Shown here: positions 3,146 through 54,627 of the stretch, piece by piece | Layout: the number at the start of each line of letters is the position of its first letter | Numbering within the stretch: position 1 is the stretch's first letter | NCBI RefSeq assembly: GCF_048551375.1 | Contig: NZ_JBLYZJ010000006.1 | Location: 80,051-144,050 of the forward strand | Length of the DNA: 64,000 nt | DNA from: Moraxella sp. TY6 | Lineage (GTDB): Bacteria; Pseudomonadota; Gammaproteobacteria; Pseudomonadales; Moraxellaceae | Direction: 5' to 3' | Translations under genes and position numbers: made by a program | The notes under the pieces: generated by a model | The model's database searches: none | What the model was told of the DNA's origin: nothing | What the model saw: the letters and a program-made list of their open reading frames with translations, nothing else

Positions 3146-5377
3146 TTAAGATTTATTAAACACAATCTTTTGCAACAAAAAGTCTTGGGCAGAAAATGCT
3201 TTTTCCCCATCTTTAGGCATGACAGCAGTCCAAGTACCTTTGGCATCTAGCTCCCACGCACTGAGGGTATCTTTAAGATAGTTTTGTAGGTCTTCCATGA
3301 TACGGTTAAACACGGTGTTATCCTCGATAGGGAATGCCACTTCCACACGATTCATCAAGTTGCGTTCCATCCAGTCGGCACTGGCACAGTAAAGGCGAGC
3401 CTTTCCTTTTTCTTGTTTATGGCTATTTTGCTCATAGCTACCGTTGGCAAAATAATACACACGGGTATGTTCCAAAAACCGAGAAACAATCGAACGTACA
3501 CGGATATTATCCGACACGCCTGCCAGTTGCGGACGTAAGCAACACATTGAGCGAGTGATAAGGTCGATTTTTACCCCTGCTTGTGAGGCTTGGTATAGCT
3601 TGTCAATGAGTTTTTGCTCAGTCAAGGCATTGACTTTAATGATAATGCGTCCCTCTCGCCCTGCTTTGACATGGGCGATTTCATCATCAATATAGTCAAG
3701 TAACTTGTCATGTAGGGTGAATGGTGCATGCAGTAATTTTTGCAATTTGGCAGGTTTACCCATACCTGTGAGTTCGTTAAAAATTTTATGCACGTCATCG
3801 GTCACGGCTTCATTGGCAGTGAATAGCCCATAGTCGGTGTAGGCTTTGGCATTGCCAGCGTGGTAGTTGCCCGTACCAAGATGCACATAACGGCGGATTT
3901 TATCTTCATCACGTTTGACAATCATCATCAATTTGGCGTGGGTTTTATAGCCGACAATGCCATATACCACCACTGCCCCTGCTTGTTGTAGAAAGTTCGC
4001 CACTTCGATATTGGATTTTTCATCAAATCTGGCACGTAGCTCAATGACGGCAGTGACTTCTTTGCCATTGCGAGCGGCTTCGGCTAGGGCTTTGACGATT
4101 TCTGAGTTTGTACCAGAGCGGTATAGGGTTTGTTTAATCGCTAACACGCTAGGGTCATTGGCGGCATGACGCAGTAAATTGACCACAGGGGCAAACGAAT
4201 GAAACGGATGATGAATCAATACGTCTTGCTTACGAATGGTGTGAAAGACGTTTTCGTTTTTATCCATCGACTCACGGCGAAACGCCTTAGGAATCATGTG
4301 AGTAAATGGCTGATAGCGTAGGTGTGGAATTTTAAAATCAAACAGCAATCGTGTCAGATTCACAGGCCCATTGACTCGGTATAATTGCTCATTACTCAGA
4401 CCAAATTCATTCAGCAAGTATTGCACCACGTTATCAGGGCATTTGGTAGTGACTTCGAGGCGGACTTTTGCCCCAAAACGGCGGTTTTCTAACTCACCCT
4501 CAAGGGCTTTTGCCAAGTCTTCCACATCATCAGACAAGTCCAAATCTGCATTACGAGTCAGGCGGAACTGGTTACAGCCCGTCACCGTCATCCCTGTAAA
4601 CAATTCACCAATATGCTCATGTATCACGGCAGTCAGCATAATGTGATGTTCTTTACCGCCTGTCAGCTCATTTGGCAAGCGAATAACACGAGGCAGACTG
4701 CGAGGGGCAGGCACGACCGCCAAATCAATCTCACGCCCAAAGCCATCTTTGCCCGTCAAACTCACCATAAAGTTAAGGCTTTTATTGACCAAGCGTGGGA
4801 ATGGGTGGGCAGGGTCAATACTAATAGGCGTCAGCACTGGGGCGACTTGCTCATCAAAATATCGCTTGACCCACTGAGCTTGTTCTTTGGTCAACTCATC
4901 ACGCTTGAGGTAGCGAATATCTTGCTCGGCAAGGGCTGGCAATACTTCTTCATTCAAAATGCGGTACTGCTCTGCCACCGCTTGATGGGCGATTTCAGAA
5001 ATATACGATAATACTTTACTTGGACGCATCCCATCAATACTGGTCGCCACATCGCCCATTTGCATTTTTTGCATCAAACCTGCCACACGAATCTCAAAAA
5101 ACTCATCGAGATTGGACGAAAAAATAATCAAGAAAAACAAGCGTTCTAGCAAAGGATGTTGCGGATTGCGAGCTTGAGCAAGGACACGCTGATGAAACTG
5201 AAGCAACGACAACTCACGGTTAAAGTACAAATCAGTGGGGTTATTGCTATATTCAAATACCTGAGGATAGTTAATACTGGTCATCGAGGCATTATGAACC
5301 ATAGTGTTGATATATTCATTATCTTTTTGGGTGGTGATATCGGCTTGTTCAGTTGGTGTCGGTTTGGCTGTGGTCAT
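3146..5377 (-). CDS. ppk: polyphosphate kinase 1
   Basis: 743 aa; N-terminal [17 protein letters not shown] motif and overall PPK1 architecture. Confidence 0.9.
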
Positions 5378-5416
5378 GGGATTTCCTTAATTTTTTGGTA
5401 TATGACTTATGCAAAC

Positions 5417-5495
5417 GACACTGGATTCCTGCATTCGCAGGAATGACGAAAAATTTTACGGAATCGTCACCCCTGCGTAGGCAGGGGTCTAGCGT
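5417..5495. repeat. MITE-like intergenic repeat, family 2 (two hairpins, 8-bp terminal inverted repeats GACACTGG/CCAGTGTC), inverted copy
   Basis: gacactggattcctgcattcgcaggaatgacg...cgtcacccctgcgtaggcaggggtct is the reverse complement of the elements at 36453-36533 and 60655-60741. Confidence 0.75.
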
Positions 5496-5606
5496 CTTTA
5501 TTTAGCAAGATAAATTTACAATTGGCGTAAGTCCTATGATAAATAACGGCTCAGTATAATGGGCTTTGTTGACCATTTGATTACAAGTGTGACAATTTAA
5601 TGACAG

Positions 5607-6398
5607 TTATTCAGTATCTGGTAAATCGGCAGCACCCATACGGCGTAAAATAATTTGGGTTTTATTGAGCAAGCGTCTGTCATTGCGATTTTTTTCATAA
5701 TACTTGGGATTGGGTAACATGGCAATCAATGAAGCGGATTGGCGTTTGGTCAAACGACTGGCGGATTTTTGATAATAATGCTGTGAAGCGGATTCAATGC
5801 CATAAATGCCTTTACCAAACTCAGCGACATTGAGATAGGCGGTCAAAATCCGTTCTTTTGTCCACATGTTTTCTATCATCAAGGTGATAATCGCCTCTTC
5901 ACCTTTACGCAGATAAGAGCGATTGGGGTATAAAAATAGATTTTTGGCAAGCTGTTGGCTAATGGTCGAGCCACCTGCCGAAATCGCCCCTGCTTTTTGG
6001 TTCTTTTTGATGGCGTTTTCGATACCTTGCACATCAAAACCTGCATGATTGCTAAAATTGGCATCTTCACTGGCAATCGCCGCACGTTTGACATTCACCG
6101 AGATTTGATTGTCTTCGACCCATGTTTGGCTTACCCCTTCAAAATGGGCCAAACGGTGCAAAATCATAAACATACTGTTATTAATCGGCTGGGTTTGCCA
6201 AATAAACAATAGCCCTGCCACCATCAGATGAAATACCACAAAAAACGTTACAATCGTCAATAGCAAACGTTTGACAAAGCGTTTAAATTTGCCTGTTTTG
6301 GGCGGTGGTGGGGGCAGACCGTGCGAGGCAGGTTTGCGAGGTTTGGCTTTGCGTGATGGGTGAGTTGAGTCGGACGTTTGGGGTAAGGCGTGGCTCAC
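5607..6398 (-). CDS. mtgA: monofunctional biosynthetic peptidoglycan transglycosylase (GT51)
   Basis: 263 aa; N-terminal TM plus GT51 motifs (EDANFSNHAGFD, GGSTISQQLAKN, RKGEEAI..LNVAEFG). Confidence 0.85.
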   Translation of the reverse strand: MSHALPQTSDSTHPSRKAKPRKPASHGLPPPPPKTGKFKRFVKRLLLTIVTFFVVFHLMVAGLLFIWQTQPINNSMFMILHRLAHFEGVSQTWVEDNQISVNVKRAAIASEDANFSNHAGFDVQGIENAIKKNQKAGAISAGGSTISQQLAKNLFLYPNRSYLRKGEEAIITLMIENMWTKERILTAYLNVAEFGKGIYGIESASQHYYQKSASRLTKRQSASLIAMLPNPKYYEKNRNDRRLLNKTQIILRRMGAADLPDTE

Positions 6399-6450
6399 AC
6401 GAATTTCCTTGACAAAAAACCTTTAGCAAACTTATACCAATAAATATCGT

Positions 6451-42406: not shown

Positions 42407-45400
42407 ATGAGTGCAGGATTAATCAGACATCTAAAAGCCAAAACCGAACAAGATAGCAATACGGCTATTTTGCTTGCTCAATGGGAATTTGACCAAAAAC
42501 TGGTTGGCAAGGCTTTGGAAAATATTGCTAGCTATTATCCACACTTTAGCAGTCATAATGCTTCACATTCACACCAAATTCTTGTCAATATTGAGCGTTT
42601 ATTAGATAAAAATATAATTGAATTATCGGCTACAGATACTTGGCTGTTACTCGAATCTGCCTATTGGCATGATGTGGGTATGTTATTTAATAGCCAACAG
42701 GTTCAGGACATTATCAAAGATAGTAAGTTTAAAGAATATGTCGAAACCCTTGCCAATGATAATAGCCAAGATTTACACGAATTTGCGAAAAAATGGCATG
42801 ATACTGACTGGAAACAAGCCTTGGCAATGTATGACCATCCACAAAAAGGCGTGGAAAAATACCGCCAAATGGTGGCTGAATGGTATCGCCGTGACCATGC
42901 TAAAAACTCTCAACGTGTGGTCGCTGACCCTTTTGAAATTCTTGGTATTAACTCACCCCGCACCGAACTATTACCAAAACGCATTTATCGTTATTTAGGG
43001 CAAATTTGTCTTGCACATGGCACAAGTTTTGAGAGTGTCATGTCACAACTGCCCTATCGCCAAACAGGTATGGGAACAGAAAACTGCCATCCTCGATTTG
43101 TGGCGTGTATGCTACGCTTGGGCGATTTGTTTGATATTGATGATAACCGATTTTGCCCTGTTATGATGAAACAAACAACCATGCCAAAATTGAGTGAGGC
43201 TCATCATCATAAGCATTTGGCGATTCGTGAGTTTCAGCTTGATAACAAGACGGTCAGTATCACCGCAGAATGTGAAGATGAAGATGCGTATATCCAAACG
43301 CAGATGTGGTTTGGCTGGATTAAAGAAGAGATGCAAAATCAAATGTCACAATGGAAAAACATTGTGCCGAACCGTTCCTTTGGTCTGCTACCTACGATTC
43401 AAAAGCTTGATGTGGTGATGACAAGTTCTAAGATTTTGCTCAATAACAAGCCAATGAAGTTTGGGCTGGATGAGAAAAGTGCGATTGAGCTGTTGCAAGG
43501 TAGAAATCTGTACGATGATGAGACCAATATCTACCGTGAGCTGATTCAAAATGCGGTGGATGCGACCTATCTGCGAGTATGGATTGAGCATGGTATGCGT
43601 AAGCGTGAGATTACCGATGACTTCCATCCGTTTCATCCAAAGTTTCAAGAGATTTTGGAGAATTATCCGATTACCATTGATTTTGTAAAATTGGAAGATG
43701 AGCCGAATTCTGATTATAGTATTTGGCAGTTTAGTTTGACGGACAATGGGACTGGCATTAGCCTGAAAGATTTGGAGTATATGCAGAAGATTGCAGGGTC
43801 TAGTCGCAATGTTGAGAAAAAACGTTTAATGGCTGATATGCCTGTGTGGATGCGTCCGTCTGGTGCGTTTGGGATTGGGTTACATAGTGCGTTTTTGTTG
43901 CTAGATAAAGGCAGAGAGGAAGATAACAAGATTGTTCTTGAGACAAAGAGTATTGCGGATAATGCGTCTTATCGGATTGAGATGACTTCGCCAATTTCGG
44001 GGAATCAGGGGTACTGTTTTATTGAAAAATTAAGTGATGAAGAAAATTTAAAAAGGGATTATGGTACTAAGCTCAACATTAATATAAGGGTAGAAAGAAA
44101 AGGTAGAAGATATTTTTATCTATCTGATGAGTTTAAAGAAAACATATTAATAAATAAATACCAAAAAGAATTTGACACGTTAAAAACGCCAATTTTTGAT
44201 TTTTCTAAAATATTATTCATTACAAGAAAAATTCGTGAAAAAATCATTACAAATATCTCTGTACCAATAGAATTTAAGCATCTTGAAAGCATTAATAATA
44301 CAAATGGGAATGCTATCACGAATCCAATTAATAGCTTCACTCCCAATCATATACTTCGCATTTGGTATGGTAAAGAAAACTTATATGTATCTTTAATCAA
44401 TCTAAGCCAAGTTGACAGTCTTACATTTTTTGAGAGTAGCTTTAGATGTATGACTTATTTTAAAGGACAAGAAATAGACAGATTATCCGTCAATATTATT
44501 CCTTCGGACATGGATTTTTTCGGCTTTAATGCTAAAGAATCTCTTCAAATAGATAGAAATAAATGGAGCAAAAACTTCTTGGAAACTCTTGAAGAAAAAA
44601 ATTATTTCTTTGAATTGAATAAAAATATTATTATTGATAATTACTCTGATATTAAAGAGCATCTCTCAAATAGTAAAGTTATGAGTGCCTTACTTTACTA
44701 TTACAAGATAGAATACCTAGACAACAGTATTAAAGACTTATGGAAAGAGATGAAATTAACTACAAGTCATAATGTTAAATATAGTGCAAATCTTGATATT
44801 AGTTACAAAGGTTTAATAAGCTTAGACCAATTTACAATAGAAGAAGACACTACAGTAAATGGAAATTATATTAACAATATTAAAATCGAAGATTTACCGA
44901 ACAATACTATTGTAGTATCAAACTTGAACAATCATAACTATTTTTATGAAAATTTTGTAAATGAATGGTATAAATCAGGTGGAGATATTATTGAAACTAA
45001 AAGTGAAGAAATTAGAACCTTTAAGTTAAGAAAAATTAATCAAACTAATAATTTACTTTTTGAACATCTGAAAAATCAATTAAAGAGTAATGTTACAAGA
45101 ATAATATTAGATTCAGATGAGATAAGAGATTATAGTTTGAATTACTTGGAGGATATTATTTGTTTCAGTGAAGCTCATGAGAACTTTCTAGGAAATAATA
45201 CAAACCGTGAAAAGGTCTTCTTATCACCTTTTGCTTTCTTTAGAGATGATGAAAAAGCCATAATAGCTGTAGCAAATTTTGAATTTTTGTGTCAATCTGT
45301 GTTCGATGAGCTAAAGAAGAATGGAAAATATATCAGATTAGATTCAATCAAAGAAAAATATGAAAAATTCATTTCTCAAGCTGATGAATTAATGAAAAAT

Positions 45401-45535
45401 ATTCCAGAATGGGTTGAAGCAAGAGAGATGGGGAGAGACTTCATACCAAAAGATATTCGAGAGCTTGAAGATATGTTTAAACCATCAGATGAAGTTTTAA
45501 AGGCTTACGAATCTGAAAAAGAAAAAAGAAAATAA
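42407..45535 (+). CDS. 1042-aa HD-domain + GHKL (Hsp90/MORC-like) ATPase protein with AT-rich C-terminal extension; candidate defence or stress protein
   Basis: HD motif HSHQILVNIERLL..YWHDVGM (~42.56-42.68 kb); Bergerat-fold boxes RELIQNAVDA (43.53 kb), DNGTGIS (43.74 kb), GAFGIGLHSAF (43.86 kb); GC falls from about 42% to about 28% after ~43.95 kb. Confidence 0.8.
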   Translation: MSAGLIRHLKAKTEQDSNTAILLAQWEFDQKLVGKALENIASYYPHFSSHNASHSHQILVNIERLLDKNIIELSATDTWLLLESAYWHDVGMLFNSQQVQDIIKDSKFKEYVETLANDNSQDLHEFAKKWHDTDWKQALAMYDHPQKGVEKYRQMVAEWYRRDHAKNSQRVVADPFEILGINSPRTELLPKRIYRYLGQICLAHGTSFESVMSQLPYRQTGMGTENCHPRFVACMLRLGDLFDIDDNRFCPVMMKQTTMPKLSEAHHHKHLAIREFQLDNKTVSITAECEDEDAYIQTQMWFGWIKEEMQNQMSQWKNIVPNRSFGLLPTIQKLDVVMTSSKILLNNKPMKFGLDEKSAIELLQGRNLYDDETNIYRELIQNAVDATYLRVWIEHGMRKREITDDFHPFHPKFQEILENYPITIDFVKLEDEPNSDYSIWQFSLTDNGTGISLKDLEYMQKIAGSSRNVEKKRLMADMPVWMRPSGAFGIGLHSAFLLLDKGREEDNKIVLETKSIADNASYRIEMTSPISGNQGYCFIEKLSDEENLKRDYGTKLNINIRVERKGRRYFYLSDEFKENILINKYQKEFDTLKTPIFDFSKILFITRKIREKIITNISVPIEFKHLESINNTNGNAITNPINSFTPNHILRIWYGKENLYVSLINLSQVDSLTFFESSFRCMTYFKGQEIDRLSVNIIPSDMDFFGFNAKESLQIDRNKWSKNFLETLEEKNYFFELNKNIIIDNYSDIKEHLSNSKVMSALLYYYKIEYLDNSIKDLWKEMKLTTSHNVKYSANLDISYKGLISLDQFTIEEDTTVNGNYINNIKIEDLPNNTIVVSNLNNHNYFYENFVNEWYKSGGDIIETKSEEIRTFKLRKINQTNNLLFEHLKNQLKSNVTRIILDSDEIRDYSLNYLEDIICFSEAHENFLGNNTNREKVFLSPFAFFRDDEKAIIAVANFEFLCQSVFDELKKNGKYIRLDSIKEKYEKFISQADELMKNIPEWVEAREMGRDFIPKDIRELEDMFKPSDEVLKAYESEKEKRK

Positions 45536-47211: not shown

Positions 47212-48402
47212 ATGAAAACACAAATTCCCGCAATTTTGGCATTAACCGATGGCACAGTTTTTAAGGGCATTAGCATCGGTGCAAGCGGACACACCGTTGG
47301 CGAAGTGGTGTTTAACACCGCCATGACAGGCTATCAAGAAATCCTGACCGACCCTAGCTATGCCGAGCAAATCGTCACCCTCACCTACCCACACATCGGC
47401 AATACAGGCACGAATGCCGAAGACACCGAATCTGGGCGTATCAAAAAGGTATGGGCAAACGGCTTGATTATCCGTGATTTGACCATGGTAACTAGCAACT
47501 TCCGCTCAACCGAATCTTTGACCGATTATTTGTTCAATAACAACACGGTCGCCATTGCCGATATCGACACTCGCAAGCTCACTCGCCTACTCCGTACCAA
47601 AGGGGCAATGAACGGCTGTATCATGACCGCAGACGCTGACGGCAATCTTGATGAGGCGAAAGCGGTGGCACTTGCTCAAAGTTTTGCAGGCATTAAAGGC
47701 ATGGACTTGGCAAAAGTCTGCTGTGATAAAGACGGCTTTGAGTGGACGCAAGGCTCTTGGGAATTGGTTAGCCCTGAAGTGAGTAGCACTTGTGGACGTT
47801 TTAAAGAACTTGGCACGGATATCGAAAAACGCTTTAACATCGTGGCGTATGATTTTGGCATTAAAACCAATATCTTGCGTATGCTTGTGGATAGAGGCTG
47901 TCATGTCACCGTTGTCCCTGCCCAGACCCCAGTTGCGGATGTTTTAAAACACAATCCAGATGGTATTTTCTTGTCAAACGGTCCTGGCGACCCTGCACCT
48001 TGTACTTATGCGATTGAGGCGATTAAGCACGTCATCACCGAAACGGATATTCCGCTATTTGGGATTTGTTTGGGTCATCAGTTGCTGGCGTTGGCAAGTG
48101 GGGCGAATACGCTTAAGATGAAGTTCGGTCATCATGGGGCGAACCACCCTGTGCAAGATATTGAGAATGGTACGGTGATGATTACGTCACAGAATCATGG
48201 TTTTGCGGTGGATGAAGACAGCTTGCCAAGTAATGTAAAAGTAACGCATCGTTCGTTGTTTGATGGGTCGAATCAAGGCATTGAATTGACGAATAAGCCT
48301 GCGTTTAGTTTCCAAGGTCACCCAGAGGCAAGCCCCGGCCCGCATGACTGCTCGCCGTTGTTTGATAAATTCGCTGAGTTGATGGTGAAAGCGAAAGGTT
48401 AA
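47212..48402 (+). CDS. carA: carbamoyl-phosphate synthase small (glutaminase) subunit
   Basis: start at ATG 47212 ([19 protein letters not shown]..); GATase catalytic region ICLGHQLL. Confidence 0.95.
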
Positions 48403-48404
48403 TA

Positions 48405-48974
48405 ATGGCAATTAAATTAGACGGTTCTTGGTCGGTCGGTTATGCCTATGACAAACATATCGAACATAGCACATTTTTGGGCTATGATGACCAAGGTCGC
48501 CCTTTATTTGACACCACTCGCACCTATTATATGGGTGAGTTGATTTACCAACTCAAATATCAGCAAAAACTTGATAACATTGATAAAATCATCGATTTAT
48601 TACTCGCTCAATTTTCTAATTTTGAAAAATTTAACATGGTTGTGCCAGCACCGTTTTCCACCCCCCGATTGCACCAACCTGTTTATTTAATCGCCGAGCA
48701 GTTAGCCAAACGACTGAATATCAGTTATCAGCCGATATTGCACAAAATACAGGCAAAAATTCCACTCAAAAACTTAGCAACATTTGATGAAAAGATAGAA
48801 AATTTGTCACACAATATTGAGCTAGATAAACAAAGCAATGTTGCCAATCAAACTATTTTGCTACTAGATGATTTATTTGACAGTGGAGCAACGCTCGATT
48901 CTGCCACACAACTACTGATGCAAGCAGGGGCAAAAGAAGTAAATGTCTTGGTACTTACCAAAACTCGAGGATAA
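48405..48974 (+). CDS. phosphoribosyltransferase (PRTase)-domain protein, ShosT-like
   Basis: 189 aa; PRPP-binding loop ILLLDDLFDSGATL; ATG 2 nt after the carA stop. Confidence 0.6.
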   Translation: MAIKLDGSWSVGYAYDKHIEHSTFLGYDDQGRPLFDTTRTYYMGELIYQLKYQQKLDNIDKIIDLLLAQFSNFEKFNMVVPAPFSTPRLHQPVYLIAEQLAKRLNISYQPILHKIQAKIPLKNLATFDEKIENLSHNIELDKQSNVANQTILLLDDLFDSGATLDSATQLLMQAGAKEVNVLVLTKTRG

Positions 48975-48977
48975 ACC

Positions 48978-49541
48978 ATGCAACCGATATTTTTTTCAGG
49001 TTCTCGAAGTTTAGTCAGCTTACCAGCTATGGTACAGCAACGTATTTTTGACAATATTTTGCAAAAAAACTTCCCTATTGTCATTGGGGATGCTGATGGT
49101 GCAGATAGCACATTACAAGCGTTTTTTGCGACCCAATACTATGATTTGGTGAAAGTTTTTTGTGCAGGTGGCAAATGCCGTAATAATATAGGTAATTGGC
49201 AAATTCAGACCATTGCAAGCTCTGCCAAAGGTCGAGCCTTTTATACCGCTAAAGATGTAGCAATGGCAAATGTCGCTAATTATGGGTTTGTGCTTTGGGA
49301 TGGTCAAAGCATTGGTTCGCTTAATAATATTGCTGAGTTATTAAAGCAAAACAAACCATCATTGGTCTATTTTGAGCCTAATCAACAGTTTATAAAAGTT
49401 GTATCAGAACAGGACTTGAATGATTTATTACAAATCGCTGATAAAGGTTTGGCAAATACCATTATCCAAAAGGGTTCAACATATTTAAAGCAACTATCAA
49501 AGAATGGTAATTTTTATCAACAGAATAGTTTGTGGAATTAA
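48978..49541 (+). CDS. DprA/Smf-like SLOG Rossmann-domain protein, ShosA-like
   Basis: 187 aa; FFSGSRSL..PIVIGDADGADS..CAGG pattern typical of DprA/LOG-type SLOG domains; RBS GAGGA. Confidence 0.55.
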   Translation: MQPIFFSGSRSLVSLPAMVQQRIFDNILQKNFPIVIGDADGADSTLQAFFATQYYDLVKVFCAGGKCRNNIGNWQIQTIASSAKGRAFYTAKDVAMANVANYGFVLWDGQSIGSLNNIAELLKQNKPSLVYFEPNQQFIKVVSEQDLNDLLQIADKGLANTIIQKGSTYLKQLSKNGNFYQQNSLWN

Positions 49542-49784
49542 AGGAAAATACTGTTTCCACCTTCGTAAATGTAGTTGCCAAAACGTATTTTTATAGTTAA
49601 CACTGAATTATAGTGAACAAGGTCGTTCGTGGTGAGCTTGTCGAACCATAACGACCGCCACCCTTCGACAGGCTCAGGGCGAGCGGTGTTCATTATGATT
49701 TCGGATTCACTATAACAAAGTGGCTAATTGAATTTGAGTATGATGAATTTTATTTGGATTAATAATTGGGTAAATGAATAAGCA

Positions 49785-50900
49785 ATGACCGAAATTAAAA
49801 TCAAAGACTTGCGTGGTGTCGGTGACGTTGAGCTACAACTTGACGATAGCAAACGTGTCTTTGTTTTTTTTGGGTCAAATGGTGTTGGGAAAACGAAAAC
49901 GTTAGAAAGCTTGTTCCTTTTTCTTTTTTATAAAACTACTGGTTTTAAATTTGAATTAGAAAAAGATAATATCTTTAATTTTTTTAAAAACATAACATAT
50001 TCTAATAAAAAACTGAAATTCGTTGATTATTTTTTCAGAGATAGTAATGCTCTTTTTTTTGATTATCACTATTTAAAAGATTTAGTACCCTATTTTGGCT
50101 ATCAAGCTATTGCCTATTTAGGTGCAAATGAGAGAAGTAAAATCTTAAAAAGTTCTGATAGTCATAGTTTAAACAATGGATTATCGGATAGAAAAAATAA
50201 TTATATATTATCTATACACAACGCAATTAATGACCAAACATTAACTAATTTTGCGATGAATCAAAATATTCATCTTTGGTTTACCGAGCGAGCCAAATCC
50301 GTCAATCCCTACCAAAAAGAAGAAGACAATCGCAAAGTTGATATTGATACGGTTTTAAATGCATTAAACATTTTAGACAGTCGCATTGAAAAAACGCTAA
50401 AAATTGATGGTGACGGCAATGTGTTTTTAACCATTGAAGGACAAGAACGAGAGTTAAGCGAATTAAGCTCTGGTTTTATCTCGGTGGTAAAAATCATTCA
50501 ATCCATAATTTCAGCTTATTCCGCCTTTACCAATGCCACCGATTTATTAAACGTCAAAGGCGTGGTATTGATTGACGAAATTGAAAGCCATTTACACATC
50601 GAATGGCAAACCAAAATCGTACCGACTTTAAAAAATTTGTTTCCCAATACCACATTCTATATCGCTACCCATTCGCCATTAGTATTATCACAGTTAGACG
50701 AAGGCGAAGCTTATTTATTAAAGCGTGATGATGACAATGTTGTAAGAAGTTCGGTAATCAACTCGCCTAACACTCGATTACTTGAAAATGTTTTGCAAGA
50801 TGCTTTTGATGTCGATTTGAACCAATTAAAACGTGACAATATGGAACATATCGACCAAAGTAAAGCTAAACAAAAATTACTAGCACTATTAAACAGATAA
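49785..50900 (+). CDS. ABC-type AAA_21 ATPase (AT-rich)
   Basis: 371 aa; Walker A GSNGVGKT, VVLIDEIESHLH Walker B/D-loop, ATHSP H-loop; about 30% GC. Confidence 0.7.
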   Translation: MTEIKIKDLRGVGDVELQLDDSKRVFVFFGSNGVGKTKTLESLFLFLFYKTTGFKFELEKDNIFNFFKNITYSNKKLKFVDYFFRDSNALFFDYHYLKDLVPYFGYQAIAYLGANERSKILKSSDSHSLNNGLSDRKNNYILSIHNAINDQTLTNFAMNQNIHLWFTERAKSVNPYQKEEDNRKVDIDTVLNALNILDSRIEKTLKIDGDGNVFLTIEGQERELSELSSGFISVVKIIQSIISAYSAFTNATDLLNVKGVVLIDEIESHLHIEWQTKIVPTLKNLFPNTTFYIATHSPLVLSQLDEGEAYLLKRDDDNVVRSSVINSPNTRLLENVLQDAFDVDLNQLKRDNMEHIDQSKAKQKLLALLNR

Positions 50901-50911
50901 CAGGTGAAGCG

Positions 50912-51364
50912 ATGACTCAAAAATCTGTTTTAGTGGATGCTAATATTTTAATTGCCATGATTGATGGTGATAATACAAACCCAAATCACGTTGAAGCAAA
51001 ACAAAAATTTAATGATTTGATAGAGCAAAATGTTGCCATTGCCATTACGCCTTTGATTCGTTATGAAGTGTTGCGTGGTATAAAAAGCATTTCGATTGAT
51101 GAAGCCCAAGCGATTTTAGACGATTTTGTTGAGTTTAACATCACGGATAAAGAAGCCAATCCATCCGCTAAAATTTTCCATTTCAGCCGAAGTGATGATT
51201 TTTTGGCAAAAAATACAGGGATTAAATTAGACAAACAAAACTTTGACGTATTTCATTACGTTGTTGCCAAGATTCGTCATTTAGAACTGGTCAATGTGAA
51301 TCAAAAAGACTTTAACAAAATTGAAAATGTGATTGATTTAATGCCAAATTCCCCATTTGAGTAA
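50912..51364 (+). CDS. PIN-domain (VapC-like) nuclease
   Basis: 150 aa; [11 protein letters not shown]-terminal acidic motif, later conserved E, and [10 protein letters not shown]-terminal PIN motif. Confidence 0.6.
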
Positions 51365-51384: not shown

Positions 51385-54300
51385 ATGCCAAAACGTACAG
51401 ATATCAAATCCATCTTAATCATCGGTGCAGGTCCAATCGTCATCGGACAAGCCTGTGAATTCGACTACTCAGGTGCTCAAGCCTGTAAAGCCTTGCGTGA
51501 AGAAGGCTACCGAGTCATTCTCGTCAACTCAAACCCAGCCACCATCATGACCGACCCTGTCATGGCGGATGCCACCTACATCGAGCCGATTACATGGCAA
51601 ACCGTTGAGCGTATCATCGAAAAAGAACGCCCAGATGCCATCTTGCCAACCATGGGCGGACAGACCGCACTTAACTGTGCGTTAGACCTTGATAAACATG
51701 GCGTATTGGCAAAATACGGCTGTGAGCTAATCGGTGCGACCAAAGATGCCATCGAAAAAGCCGAAGACCGTGACCTATTCGACAAAGCCATGAAAAAAAT
51801 CGGCTTAGAATGTCCTCGTGCCGAAGTCGCAGGCAATATGCAAGAAGCCTTTGAAATCCAAGCCAAAGTCGGCTTCCCTTGTATCATTCGTCCATCATTC
51901 ACCATGGGCGGTTCGGGCGGTGGTATCGCTTACAACCGTGACGAATTTGTCGAGATTTGCGAACGTGGTTTTGACCTGTCGCCGACCAAACAGCTATTGA
52001 TTGACGAAAGCTTAATCGGCTGGAAAGAATACGAAATGGAAGTCGTGCGTGACAAAAACGACAACTGTATCATCATCTGTTCAATTGAAAACTTCGACCC
52101 AATGGGCGTACACACAGGCGACTCGATTACCGTTGCCCCTGCTCAGACTTTGACCGACAAAGAATACCAAATCATGCGAAATGCCTCGATTGCGGTATTG
52201 CGTGAGATTGGCGTGGAAACAGGCGGTTCAAACGTCCAGTTTGGCATCGACCCAAAAACAGGGCGTATGGTTGTCATCGAGATGAACCCTCGTGTTAGCC
52301 GTTCTTCTGCGTTAGCGTCTAAGGCGACTGGCTTTCCGATTGCCAAAATCGCTGCCAAACTCGCCGTTGGTTACACGCTTGATGAACTCAAAAACGACAT
52401 CACAGGCGGTAAAACCCCAGCCAGTTTTGAGCCATCAATTGACTATGTGGTGACCAAAGTACCTCGTTTTAACTTTGAAAAATTCCCACAAGCCGATAAC
52501 ACGCTATCAACGCAAATGAAGTCAGTCGGTGAAGTCATGGCGATTGGGCGTAATTTCCAAGAGTCGATGCAAAAAGCCTTGCGTGGGCTTGAGATTGGCG
52601 TGAATGGTTTTGATGAGTATTTGGATTTAAACCAAGATACTGACAGCATTCGTAGTACACTGAAAGTTAAACTAAAAACCCCGACCCCAGAGCGTATTTT
52701 CTACGTTGCCGATGCGTTCCGCTTTGGCATGAGTGTGGATGAGGTGTTTAACTTTACCAACATTGACCCTTGGTTCTTGGTACAAATCGAAGACATCGTT
52801 AAAACCGAAAAACAAGTCAAAGAAACGGGCTTTGGTGGTTTGACAGCCGATGTGTTACGTGCGTTTAAACGTAAAGGTTTATCAGATTTACGCCTTGCTA
52901 CCTTACTTGGTATTTCACAAAAACAACTGCGTAAAAAGCGTTGGGATTTGGGCGTTTATCCTGTTTATAAACGTGTCGATACTTGTGCCGCCGAGTTTGA
53001 AACTTCAACCGCTTATATGTACTCAAGCTATGACGATGAGTGCGAAGCACAGCCGACCAATAACAAAAAAATCATGGTCATCGGTGGTGGCCCAAACCGT
53101 ATCGGACAAGGCATTGAGTTTGATTATTGCTGTGTGCATGCGGCATTGGCAATGCGTGAAGACGGTTATGAAACCATCATGGTGAACTGTAACCCAGAAA
53201 CCGTTTCGACCGATTATGATACCTCTGACCGTCTATATTTTGAGCCGATTACCCTTGAAGATGTACTAGAAATCGTACGTATCGAAAAACCTGAAGGCGT
53301 GATTGTGCAGTATGGTGGTCAAACGCCATTGAAACTTGCTCGTGCCTTAGAAGCCGCAGGTGTGCATATCATCGGTACTAGCCCAGATGCCATCGACCGT
53401 GCCGAAGACCGTGAACGCTTCCAACACATGATTAACCAGTTAGGCTTTACTCAGCCACCCAATGCGTTGGCGACCAGTACCGAAGACGGTATTGTCAAAG
53501 CCGAAAAAGTCGGCTATCCGCTGGTGGTGCGTCCTTCGTATGTGTTGGGCGGTCGTGCCATGGAAATCGTGTATAACGAAAGCGAACTCCGCCGTTACTT
53601 GCGTGAGGCGGTACAAGCCTCGAATGAAGCCCCTGTGCTACTTGACCGCTTCCTTGATGATGCGATTGAGGTCGATGTGGATTGTATCTCGGACGGCACA
53701 AACGTGGTGATTGGCGGTATCATGCAACATATCGAACAGGCAGGCGTGCATTCTGGCGACTCGGCTTGCTCGATTCCGCCTTATTCGCTCGGTCAAGAGA
53801 TTTGTGATGTCATGCGTGAGCAAACGGTGGCAATGGCAAAAGAGCTTGGCGTGGTCGGCTTGATGAACGTGCAATATGCGGTCAAAGACGGCGTGGTGTA
53901 TATCCTTGAGGTCAATCCTCGTGCCTCTCGTACCGTGCCTTTTGTGTCAAAATGTATCGGCACATCGCTTGCCCAAGTCGCCGCTCGCTGTATGGCAGGC
54001 AAAACCTTGGCAGAGCAAGGCTTTACCCAAGAGGTGATTCCAAGTTTCTTTGCGGTCAAAGAGGCAGTATTCCCATTTGCCAAGTTTCCGGGGGTTGACC
54101 CAATCCTTAGCCCAGAGATGAAATCAACGGGTGAAGTCATGGGCGTGGGTCAGACCTTTGGCGAAGCGTATTATAAAGCTATCATCGGTAGTAATGACCG
54201 CTTACCTGGTTTGCCAGTTGATGGTGAAGTGAAAAAAGTCTTCCTATCGGTGCGTGATAGTGATAAAGCCAACTTAATTCCGATTGCCAAACAATTCATC

Positions 54301-54627
54301 GAATATGGCTTTGGATTGGTTGCCACAGGCGGTACGCATCAAGTATTAAGCGATGCTGGATTGGCATGTGAAAAAGTCAACAAAGTCAATGAAGGTCGCC
54401 CACATATTGTTGATGCCATCAAAAATGGTGAAATTGCCATTGTGGTAAACACTACTGAAGGCAAACAAGCCCACGAAGATTCGTTCTCAATTCGCCGTAG
54501 TGCCTTGCAACACAAAGTGTTTAATGTGACAACGCTCAATGCGGCGGCGGCGGTGGCGGAAGCCTATAAAGTACAATTGCCGTTTGAAGTATATAAATTG
54601 CAAGAATTGCACGCTCAAGCGAAATAA
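51385..54627 (+). CDS. carB: carbamoyl-phosphate synthase large subunit
   Basis: 1080 aa; duplicated ATP-grasp halves, unmistakable CarB sequence. Confidence 0.97.

Follow-up and report, generated by a model that had tools for sequence, protein, structure and literature searches.

A PtuA-like ABC ATPase paired with a VapC-like PIN nuclease between carA and carB in Moraxella sp. TY6: a putative Septu-like module

The stretch of Moraxella sp. TY6 DNA analysed here (contig NZ_JBLYZJ010000006.1, positions 80,051 to 144,050; 64,000 nucleotides, referred to as the window) holds, between the carbamoyl-phosphate synthase genes carA and carB, two adjacent genes for an ATP-binding cassette (ABC) ATPase related to PtuA and for a VapC-like PIN-domain protein. 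They are best explained as a Septu-like two-gene defence or toxin module, a reading that we judge moderately probable, in which the PtuA-clade ATPase would act as regulator and sensor, and the PIN protein as the effector in place of PtuB. This reading draws on the folds and catalytic motifs of both proteins, on their strict pairing and co-evolution, on the hypervariability of an insert in the ATPase, and on the genomic contexts of the pair, all of which are observed here. The combination of an ABC ATPase with a PIN protein is already known as a validated defence architecture. The novelty lies in this PtuA-PIN family, its breadth and the hypervariable insert, and most of all in the tendency of the family to reside inside operons.

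Both genes lie on the forward strand, as do the features of the carA-carB region located below. The ATPase gene (49785..50900; ATG start, 371 amino acids) is followed, after a gap of 11 bp containing an AGGTGA ribosome-binding site, by the PIN gene (50912..51364; ATG start, 150 amino acids), an arrangement given by the initial annotation and borne out by the list of open reading frames (ORFs). The motifs quoted in that annotation are likewise all found: GSNGVGKT, VVLIDEIESHLH and ATHSP in the ATPase, and LVNVNQKDF in the PIN protein. Its figure of about 30% GC for both genes compares with measured values of 32.2% for the ATPase gene and 32.9% for the PIN gene, against 47.9% for carA, 47.8% for carB and 42.9% for the whole window. 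Identical ATPase and PIN proteins have been called by NCBI in the Moraxella genome GCA_048551455.1.

The ATPase matches the Pfam families AAA_15/AAA_21 above the gathering score (2e-12), and the PtuA models of PADLOC with E-values of 1e-35 to 1e-21, the best match being nearly full length. The 25 PADLOC matches listed for this protein comprise PtuA models and one retron-type model (ATPase_I-A). The PtuA model of NCBIfam is also matched (1e-28), but the score of 100 bits is far from the 500 required of an equivalog, so that the protein is to be regarded as a relative within the PtuA clade rather than as an equivalog. By sequence, the nearest solved structures in the Protein Data Bank (PDB) are those of PtuA from type I-A retrons and Septu (1e-16 to 1e-13), while the similarity to AriA of PARIS is marginal (E 0.004). 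An AlphaFold model computed from 27 homologues has a pLDDT (predicted local distance difference test) of 77.6, and its best 50 Foldseek matches in the PDB are all PtuA chains. The initial annotation had assigned the upstream partner to the kind of ATPase found in PARIS, Septu and AbiL; it is indeed an ATPase of the defence type, and within the PtuA clade, to which it belongs, the usual partner is an HNH nuclease.

The motifs of the ATPase make it look enzymatically competent, since Walker A, the signature, the Walker B/D-loop and the H-loop are all invariant. The Walker A or P-loop motif GSNGVGKT (residues 30-37; 49872..49895) holds G30, N32, G33, G35, K36 and T37 without exception in the 27 homologues. 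The same is true of L227, S228, G230 and F231 in the ABC signature-like motif LSSGF (residues 227-231; 50463..50477), of D264, E265, H269, L270 and H271 in the Walker B/D-loop segment VVLIDEIESHLH (residues 260-271; 50562..50597), which is the part of the protein that aligns best with the PtuA structures, and of T295, H296 and S297 in the H-loop THSP (residues 295-298, within ATHSP at 294-298; 50667..50678).

The identity profile of the ATPase is interrupted by a hypervariable insert (residues 46-160; 49920..50264), located between the P-loop helix and the remainder of the ABC head, which is a candidate sensor or specificity region. Mean pairwise identity across the 27 ATPases is 0.06-0.31 within these residues and 0.5-0.83 elsewhere, and close homologues share 91-96% identity with the window ATPase in the flanks but just 18-24% in the insert. 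The structural model is also least confident there, with low values at residues 59-61 and 81-103. A variable insert with such sharp boundaries is what would be expected of a recognition surface under diversifying selection.

The PIN protein has Pfam PIN (PF01850) as its sole Pfam match (3.4e-8; 34.5 bits against a cutoff of 23.6), and reaches 30 bits with the VapC model of NCBIfam, under the cutoff of 80. Its AlphaFold model is confident (pLDDT 91.9), and Foldseek places 30 VapC toxins at the top of its PDB matches (TM 0.55-0.75), among them VapC15, VapC11 and VapC20 of M. tuberculosis as well as VapC of Shigella, Klebsiella and Salmonella. The PIN assignment, which the initial annotation had offered as one point on which its proposal could fail, thus survives both the profile search and the comparison of folds. 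Four acidic residues make up the D-E-D-D active site, and all are invariant across 25 aligned members of the family: Asp9 (50936..50938), Glu52 (51065..51067), Asp112 (51245..51247), which aligns with a conserved Asp of Klebsiella VapC 7by2, and Asp133 (51308..51310), located within the NQKDF motif that aligns with NTKDF of the same protein. The predicted fold and the intact catalytic site suggest a VapC-like nuclease that appears to be active. A profile of the family retrieves just 220 representatives among 1.84 billion at E<=1e-3, 47 of them at E<=1e-30, which argues for a compact and discrete PIN clade and not for a generic VapC.

Relatives of the PIN protein were sought in one genome per bacterial species (185,579 species genomes). 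The scan returned 77 loci with PIN relatives, and the family occurs in at least 77 species-level genomes of Beta- and Gammaproteobacteria. The hosts include Moraxella, Psychrobacter, Xanthomonas, Lysobacter, Kushneria, Comamonadaceae, Thiothrix, Enterobacterales, Neisseria and Pasteurellaceae, among others, with Neisseria gonorrhoeae, Moraxella bovis, Glaesserella parasuis and several Xanthomonas species among the carriers of the family. The search for such pairs in other genomes, which the initial annotation had proposed, reveals a conserved module: in 84 of the 86 loci examined, an ATPase homologue (E 1e-61 to 1e-157) is encoded directly 5' of the PIN gene on the same strand. This pairing far exceeds chance. 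The two genes usually overlap by 1 or 4 nucleotides, and the divergences of the ATPases correlate with those of the PIN proteins (Spearman 0.69). In Xanthomonas axonopodis DSM 3585 (locus L024, 2625-4238), both proteins are fused in frame into an ORF of 537 amino acids, which differs from the Xanthomonas bromi arrangement by one additional nucleotide at the usual ATGA stop/start overlap. As a sign of an interaction between ATPase and PIN protein, this fusion is weak, given that a single additional nucleotide in a single draft genome may be a sequencing error. Pairing, overlaps, correlated divergence and the one fusion nevertheless argue for an ancient, co-evolving and translationally coupled module.

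Among characterised systems, the closest likeness is to Septu (PtuAB) and to the PtuAB effectors of the type I-A retrons (Ec78/Eco7 and Ec83). The ATPase is of the PtuA clade by profile, sequence and fold, and the pair likewise forms an operon of two genes, that of the ATPase first and that of the nuclease second. The logic is probably the same as well, with an ATPase oligomer that would restrain the nuclease. As reviewed in PMC12065111, the nuclease of Septu, like that of PARIS, is bound and controlled by the ABC ATPase. Expression of PtuA and PtuB, the effectors of retron-Eco7, results in degradation of tRNA-Tyr (PMC11555353), and tRNA is also the kind of substrate cleaved by VapC PIN domains. 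However, the nuclease of Septu is the HNH protein PtuB, in contrast to the PIN protein found here, and no HNH gene candidate is present among the forward-strand ORFs of at least 50 codons between carA and carB, the other two of which encode a phosphoribosyltransferase and a SLOG-like protein. Septu and retron PtuA proteins measure 465-550 residues, compared to 371 in the window ATPase, which also falls under the NCBIfam PtuA cutoff. Moreover, the reverse transcriptase and multicopy single-stranded DNA (msDNA) of type I-A retrons have no counterpart here, and, unlike Septu, the pair is located inside housekeeping operons.

The PIN protein shares with VapBC systems the VapC fold, the full D-E-D-D site and the position as downstream gene of a translationally coupled pair. 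Nevertheless, its upstream partner is a 371-residue ABC ATPase of the defence type instead of a small DNA-binding VapB antitoxin (of AbrB, RHH, PhD or MerR type), as had been noticed from the outset. The protein also remains under the VapC cutoff, and its clade does not pull in general VapCs. A classical VapBC pair was rejected on the grounds that there is no small forward-strand ORF between the ATPase and PIN genes and that the ATPase lies upstream in 84 of the 86 loci.

The architecture itself has a precedent in HEC-03 (Hma-embedded candidate 03; Payne, Hughes, Fineran & Jackson, bioRxiv 10.1101/2024.01.29.577857), which consists of an ABC ATPase and a VapC-like PIN protein, in the same order as here. 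HEC-03 was discovered through its nesting inside another defence operon; it protects E. coli from phage, requires both genes to do so, and is toxic when induced (bioRxiv 10.1101/2024.01.29.577857). Its ATPase, however, is a 461-residue protein of the DUF3696/NsnB type, whose best PADLOC matches after its own model are NsnB and AriA. Membership of the window pair in HEC-03 was rejected after BLASTP comparison with the sequences in Table S2 of the preprint (E 0.31 for the ATPases and 0.59 for the PIN proteins). The HEC-03 models of PADLOC recognise HEC-03 itself, but neither the window proteins nor 25 members of the family. This lack of significant similarity points to an independent recruitment of a PIN protein by another clade of ABC ATPases. 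An ATPase combined with a PIN protein had at first been taken for an unnamed system; this does not hold for the architecture, given the HEC-03 precedent, but it does hold for the present pair, which is not homologous to HEC-03 and matches no PADLOC system.

Menshen (NsnABC) and ptuXYZ also combine an ABC ATPase with a PIN-fold protein that docks on it. These systems comprise three genes with a DUF262-type nuclease, and their PIN-like domain is a catalytically dead adaptor fused to a BECR RNase (PMC12065111), whereas the PIN protein of the window stands alone with all four acidic residues, and there is no third gene. NsnB is absent from the 25 PADLOC matches listed for the ATPase. PARIS (AriA-AriB), Gabija, OLD and AbiL likewise couple an ABC ATPase to a nuclease effector; their effectors, however, are TOPRIM proteins (DUF4435/TOPRIM in the case of AriB) and not PIN proteins. 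Matches to PDC-M07 and PDC-M11, two untested candidates of PADLOC, are marginal (E 0.01 and 6e-4) and do not support membership in either; a literature search found no paper mentioning PDC-M07. Since the pair lacks an HNH partner, homology to HEC-03, a VapB antitoxin and the defining features of Menshen and PARIS, it is best described as a PtuA-clade defence ABC ATPase with a PIN effector.

On the basis of these analogies, a mechanism can be proposed for the Septu-like module. ATPase and PIN protein would be made together through translational coupling, and the ATPase would form dimers or oligomers in complex with the PIN protein, keeping the nuclease inactive. An infection cue would be sensed by the insert (residues 46-160), by the nucleotide state of the ATPase, or by both. 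This trigger would release or activate the PIN protein, which would then cleave RNA, so that translation would stop and the infection would be aborted. As with VapC toxins, the cleavage site would most plausibly be a loop in a tRNA or rRNA. Complex formation, the trigger, the RNA cleaved and the protection against phage are all inferred from related systems.

Unexpectedly, the pair lies inside host operons, in the same orientation as the genes around it. The order carA|ATPase|PIN|carB recurs in about 30 other loci, and the arrangement carA|pair|carB(-greA) is found in Psychrobacter (where there are zero intergenic bases), M. bovis, Enhydrobacter, five Xanthomonas species, Lysobacteraceae, Kushneria, several Burkholderiales and Azoarcus, among others. 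A literature search found no paper linking carA or carB with an ATPase-PIN pair. Other members of the family reside in different operons. In seven Neisseria loci, the pair separates nuoL from nuoM in the complex I operon (L066, L050, L059, L073, L075, L078 and L080; around 4780-6450), and N. gonorrhoeae also carries it (tblastn match in NZ_CP119142.1, 1709767-1710186). It is further found as ureC|pair|...ureF in Thiothrix/Thiolinea, as rmlB|pair|rmlD in an uncultured Moraxella, and as ibpB|pair|yidE-like in Enterobacterales. Two more settings are defence operons. In Thiothrix fructosivorans (L057), the pair lies between hsdS and hsdR of a type I restriction-modification (R-M) system, and hsdR adjoins the pair in four further loci. 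In metagenome-assembled genomes (MAGs) of Cocleimonas (L041, 19-4543, and L039), the pair and a 120-residue CcbP-like gene lie between jetD and a JetC-like gene with an SbcC Walker B, within a Wadjet operon. The Thiothrix and Cocleimonas loci are examples of defence genes nested inside other defence operons.

One further locus (L088) comes from a MAG labelled Cytophagales (GCA_030054145.1), where the synteny carA-ATPase-PIN-carB...greA is typical of Proteobacteria and the ATPase is 47% identical to that of the window; the label may be due to mis-binning. Its PIN gene appears split into calls of 112 and 60 residues, and is intact in a near-identical Logan contig.

The preference for the carAB slot could point to a housekeeping or regulatory role within the host operon. 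The PIN protein might, for example, be an RNA-processing nuclease that, with the ATPase as its chaperone, would tune the stoichiometry of the carAB mRNA or respond to nucleotide pools. The carA|pair|carB-greA slot is common to Moraxellaceae, Xanthomonadaceae, Halomonadaceae, Burkholderiales and Rhodocyclales, often with zero intergenic bases, and the GC content of the pair tracks that of its host. However, homologous pairs occupy unrelated operons (nuo, ure, rml, hsd, jet and ibpB-yidE), so that there is no common metabolic theme. The pair is also absent, at the DNA level, from 5,426 E. coli genomes, and the 185,579 species genomes scanned yielded no locus from Acinetobacter, although both hold carAB. 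Furthermore, the pair lies 5-17 GC points under its flanks in nearly every lineage, the insert of the ATPase is hypervariable, and the nearest characterised relatives are all immune ATPases. This role is thus regarded as improbable.

The GC content of the pair ranges from 30% to 61% following that of the host, while staying below carA and carB in nearly every lineage, and the trees of both proteins agree with that of CarB within families. Both features argue for a long residence rather than a recent import, and they rule out a recent arrival from a single AT-rich donor, which the low GC of the window pair had suggested. X. arboricola, on the other hand, carries a divergent allele of the pair despite a CarB nearly identical to that of other Xanthomonas.

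This allele is one of the observations that would fit a homing-type mobile nuclease cassette. In the manner of the free-standing homing endonucleases of phages, such a cassette would insert between highly conserved genes; it could spread by cleaving alleles that lack it, or simply through transformation followed by recombination in the conserved flanks. The pair is always intergenic, between strongly conserved and co-oriented genes of several operons, with no integrase or transposase nearby, and many of its host genera (Moraxella, Psychrobacter, Neisseria and Pasteurellaceae) are naturally competent. Nevertheless, VapC-type PIN domains are RNases, and to our knowledge no DNA-cleaving homing PIN has been described. 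The phylogeny is mostly vertical within families, neither target-site duplications nor repeats were seen at the loci, and homing endonucleases do not have an ATPase partner, all of which makes this explanation highly improbable.

Several findings weigh against the Septu-like reading. The ATPase is approximately 100-180 residues shorter than the structurally characterised PtuA proteins and far under the NCBIfam PtuA equivalog cutoff, and PADLOC v2.0.0 has no system model that detects the pair. Carriage by plasmids, phages or prophages was looked for and not found: the pair was seen on none of 72,556 plasmid records, the single match being the 2.17-Mb N. gonorrhoeae chromosome NZ_CP119142.1, mislabelled as a plasmid in PLSDB, nor was it found in 50,697 phage genomes or 2.9 million viral contigs. 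Such an absence is atypical for defence systems. In addition, about half of the loci use the same slot inside a housekeeping operon with a largely host-congruent local phylogeny, which looks more like long vertical residence than like the patchy turnover of immune genes.

Some of these findings lend weight to a chromosomal addiction module of the toxin-antitoxin (TA) kind with no dedicated immune role, in which the ATPase would be a large proteinaceous antitoxin. The cassette would then be a selfish passenger that persists in essential operons because losing or silencing it is counter-selected. Besides the long carAB residence, the host-congruent local phylogeny and the absence from mobile elements, this explanation would account for a VapC-like PIN protein with an intact active site and for the tight translational coupling. 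In NetFlax, AAA/ABC ATPases are paired with nuclease toxins in an antitoxin-like role, and HEC-03 is toxic on over-expression. On the other hand, the ATPase is highly conserved outside the hypervariable insert, a pattern that suggests an arms race with some external partner more than the mere neutralisation of a toxin, and the repeated nesting in R-M and Wadjet operons also speaks against addiction alone. We consider this explanation possible, if unlikely; it overlaps with the Septu-like reading, as TA and abortive-infection roles are not mutually exclusive.

In the window, the pair shares the carA-carB gap, inside the carAB operon, with two further genes, a setting that the initial annotation does not mention, the order on one strand being carA, phosphoribosyltransferase, SLOG-like gene, a spacer of 243 nucleotides, ATPase, PIN, carB and greA. 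The 5' boundary is carA (47212..48402; 396 residues, with CPSase_sm_chain and GATase domains), coding for the small subunit of carbamoyl-phosphate synthase, and the 3' boundary is carB (51385..54627), coding for the large subunit, which begins 20 nucleotides past the PIN stop codon. The phosphoribosyltransferase (48405..48974) resembles ShosT and PsyrT (PADLOC PsyrT 2.6e-22 and ShosT 2.6e-12; Pfam Pribosyltran). Its partner (48978..49541), a DprA/SLOG-like, ShosA-like protein of 187 residues, has no direct family match in Pfam, PADLOC or NCBIfam, and was assigned through homologues (51-53% identity) that contain PF02481 and bear the name Smf/DprA SLOG domain protein. Together they form a Shosta/PsyrTA-like architecture, whose partner protein is missed by current PADLOC models. 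In a close relative (L094, PIN 87% identical), the order is carA-ATPase-PIN-carB, lacking the phosphoribosyltransferase and SLOG-like genes, which indicates that the ATPase-PIN pair is the older resident and the other two genes a later, recent insertion. Another Moraxella (L009, JAUMUJ010000018.1, 2565-3879) holds a 207-residue protein and a Fic-domain protein in the carA-carB gap, 5' of the pair, and two further loci (L021 and L074) have 1.3-1.6 kb of additional sequence there. This differing cargo argues for the carA-carB junction being a small variable hotspot in Moraxella. The nesting in R-M and Wadjet operons, the Shosta-like pair of the window and the Fic protein of the other Moraxella suggest a defence context, in support of the Septu-like module.

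The spacer between the SLOG-like and ATPase genes contains a GC-rich imperfect palindrome (49606..49700; RNA fold of -44.3 kcal/mol, z = -5.8), which occurs once in the window, is not followed by a T-run and matches no Rfam family. This palindrome may be an insertion scar resembling repetitive extragenic palindromic (REP) sequences or miniature inverted-repeat transposable elements (MITEs), or a transcriptional barrier. The carA-carB insert revealed no regulatory RNA, riboswitch or terminator: it has no Rfam match, and the promoter and terminator scans stayed at background. With no evident promoter of its own and a co-oriented position inside host operons, the pair is probably expressed by read-through.

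Another candidate conflict or defence gene (42407-45535) lies approximately 4 kb 5' of carA. Its 1042-residue product combines a GHKL/Hsp90-like ATPase domain (HATPase_c_3) with an HD-CE domain at the N-terminus (PF24391, 4e-54). The gene has a GC content of 34%, with a stretch of 26% at 44-45 kb, and the protein has no PADLOC match.

A more speculative view, which we hold to be decidedly unlikely, would make the operon habit itself the core of the mechanism. The family would then be one of promoterless immune or toxin cassettes specialised for the interior of essential housekeeping operons (carAB, nuo, ure and rml) and of defence operons (type I R-M and Wadjet), with their synthesis slaved to host transcription, and would sense the shut-off of the operon. 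A phage that halts host transcription or translation would prevent the ATPase from being replenished, or would cause ATP to fall, and the PIN RNase would be freed. In that case, the hypervariable insert would serve either as an additional trigger specific to the phage or to make the surface of the ATPase resistant to phage inhibitors.

If the Septu-like module is functional, the PtuA scaffold of Septu would be one that swaps effectors, with HNH nucleases in Septu and retrons and a PIN nuclease here, and pairings of ABC ATPases with PIN proteins would have arisen independently at least two times, in the NsnB-type HEC-03 and in the PtuA-type family. A family present in at least 77 species-level genomes and lacking a system model in PADLOC v2.0.0 also represents a gap in detection. 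The sharply bounded hypervariable insert offers a ready handle for mapping what the ATPase senses. A toxin-like module co-oriented between carA and carB, or between nuoL and nuoM, is unusual and is relevant to the question of how such genes, be they immune or selfish, come to be expressed and kept in the genome, and the pair may help to account for the variability of the carA-carB junction in these bacteria.

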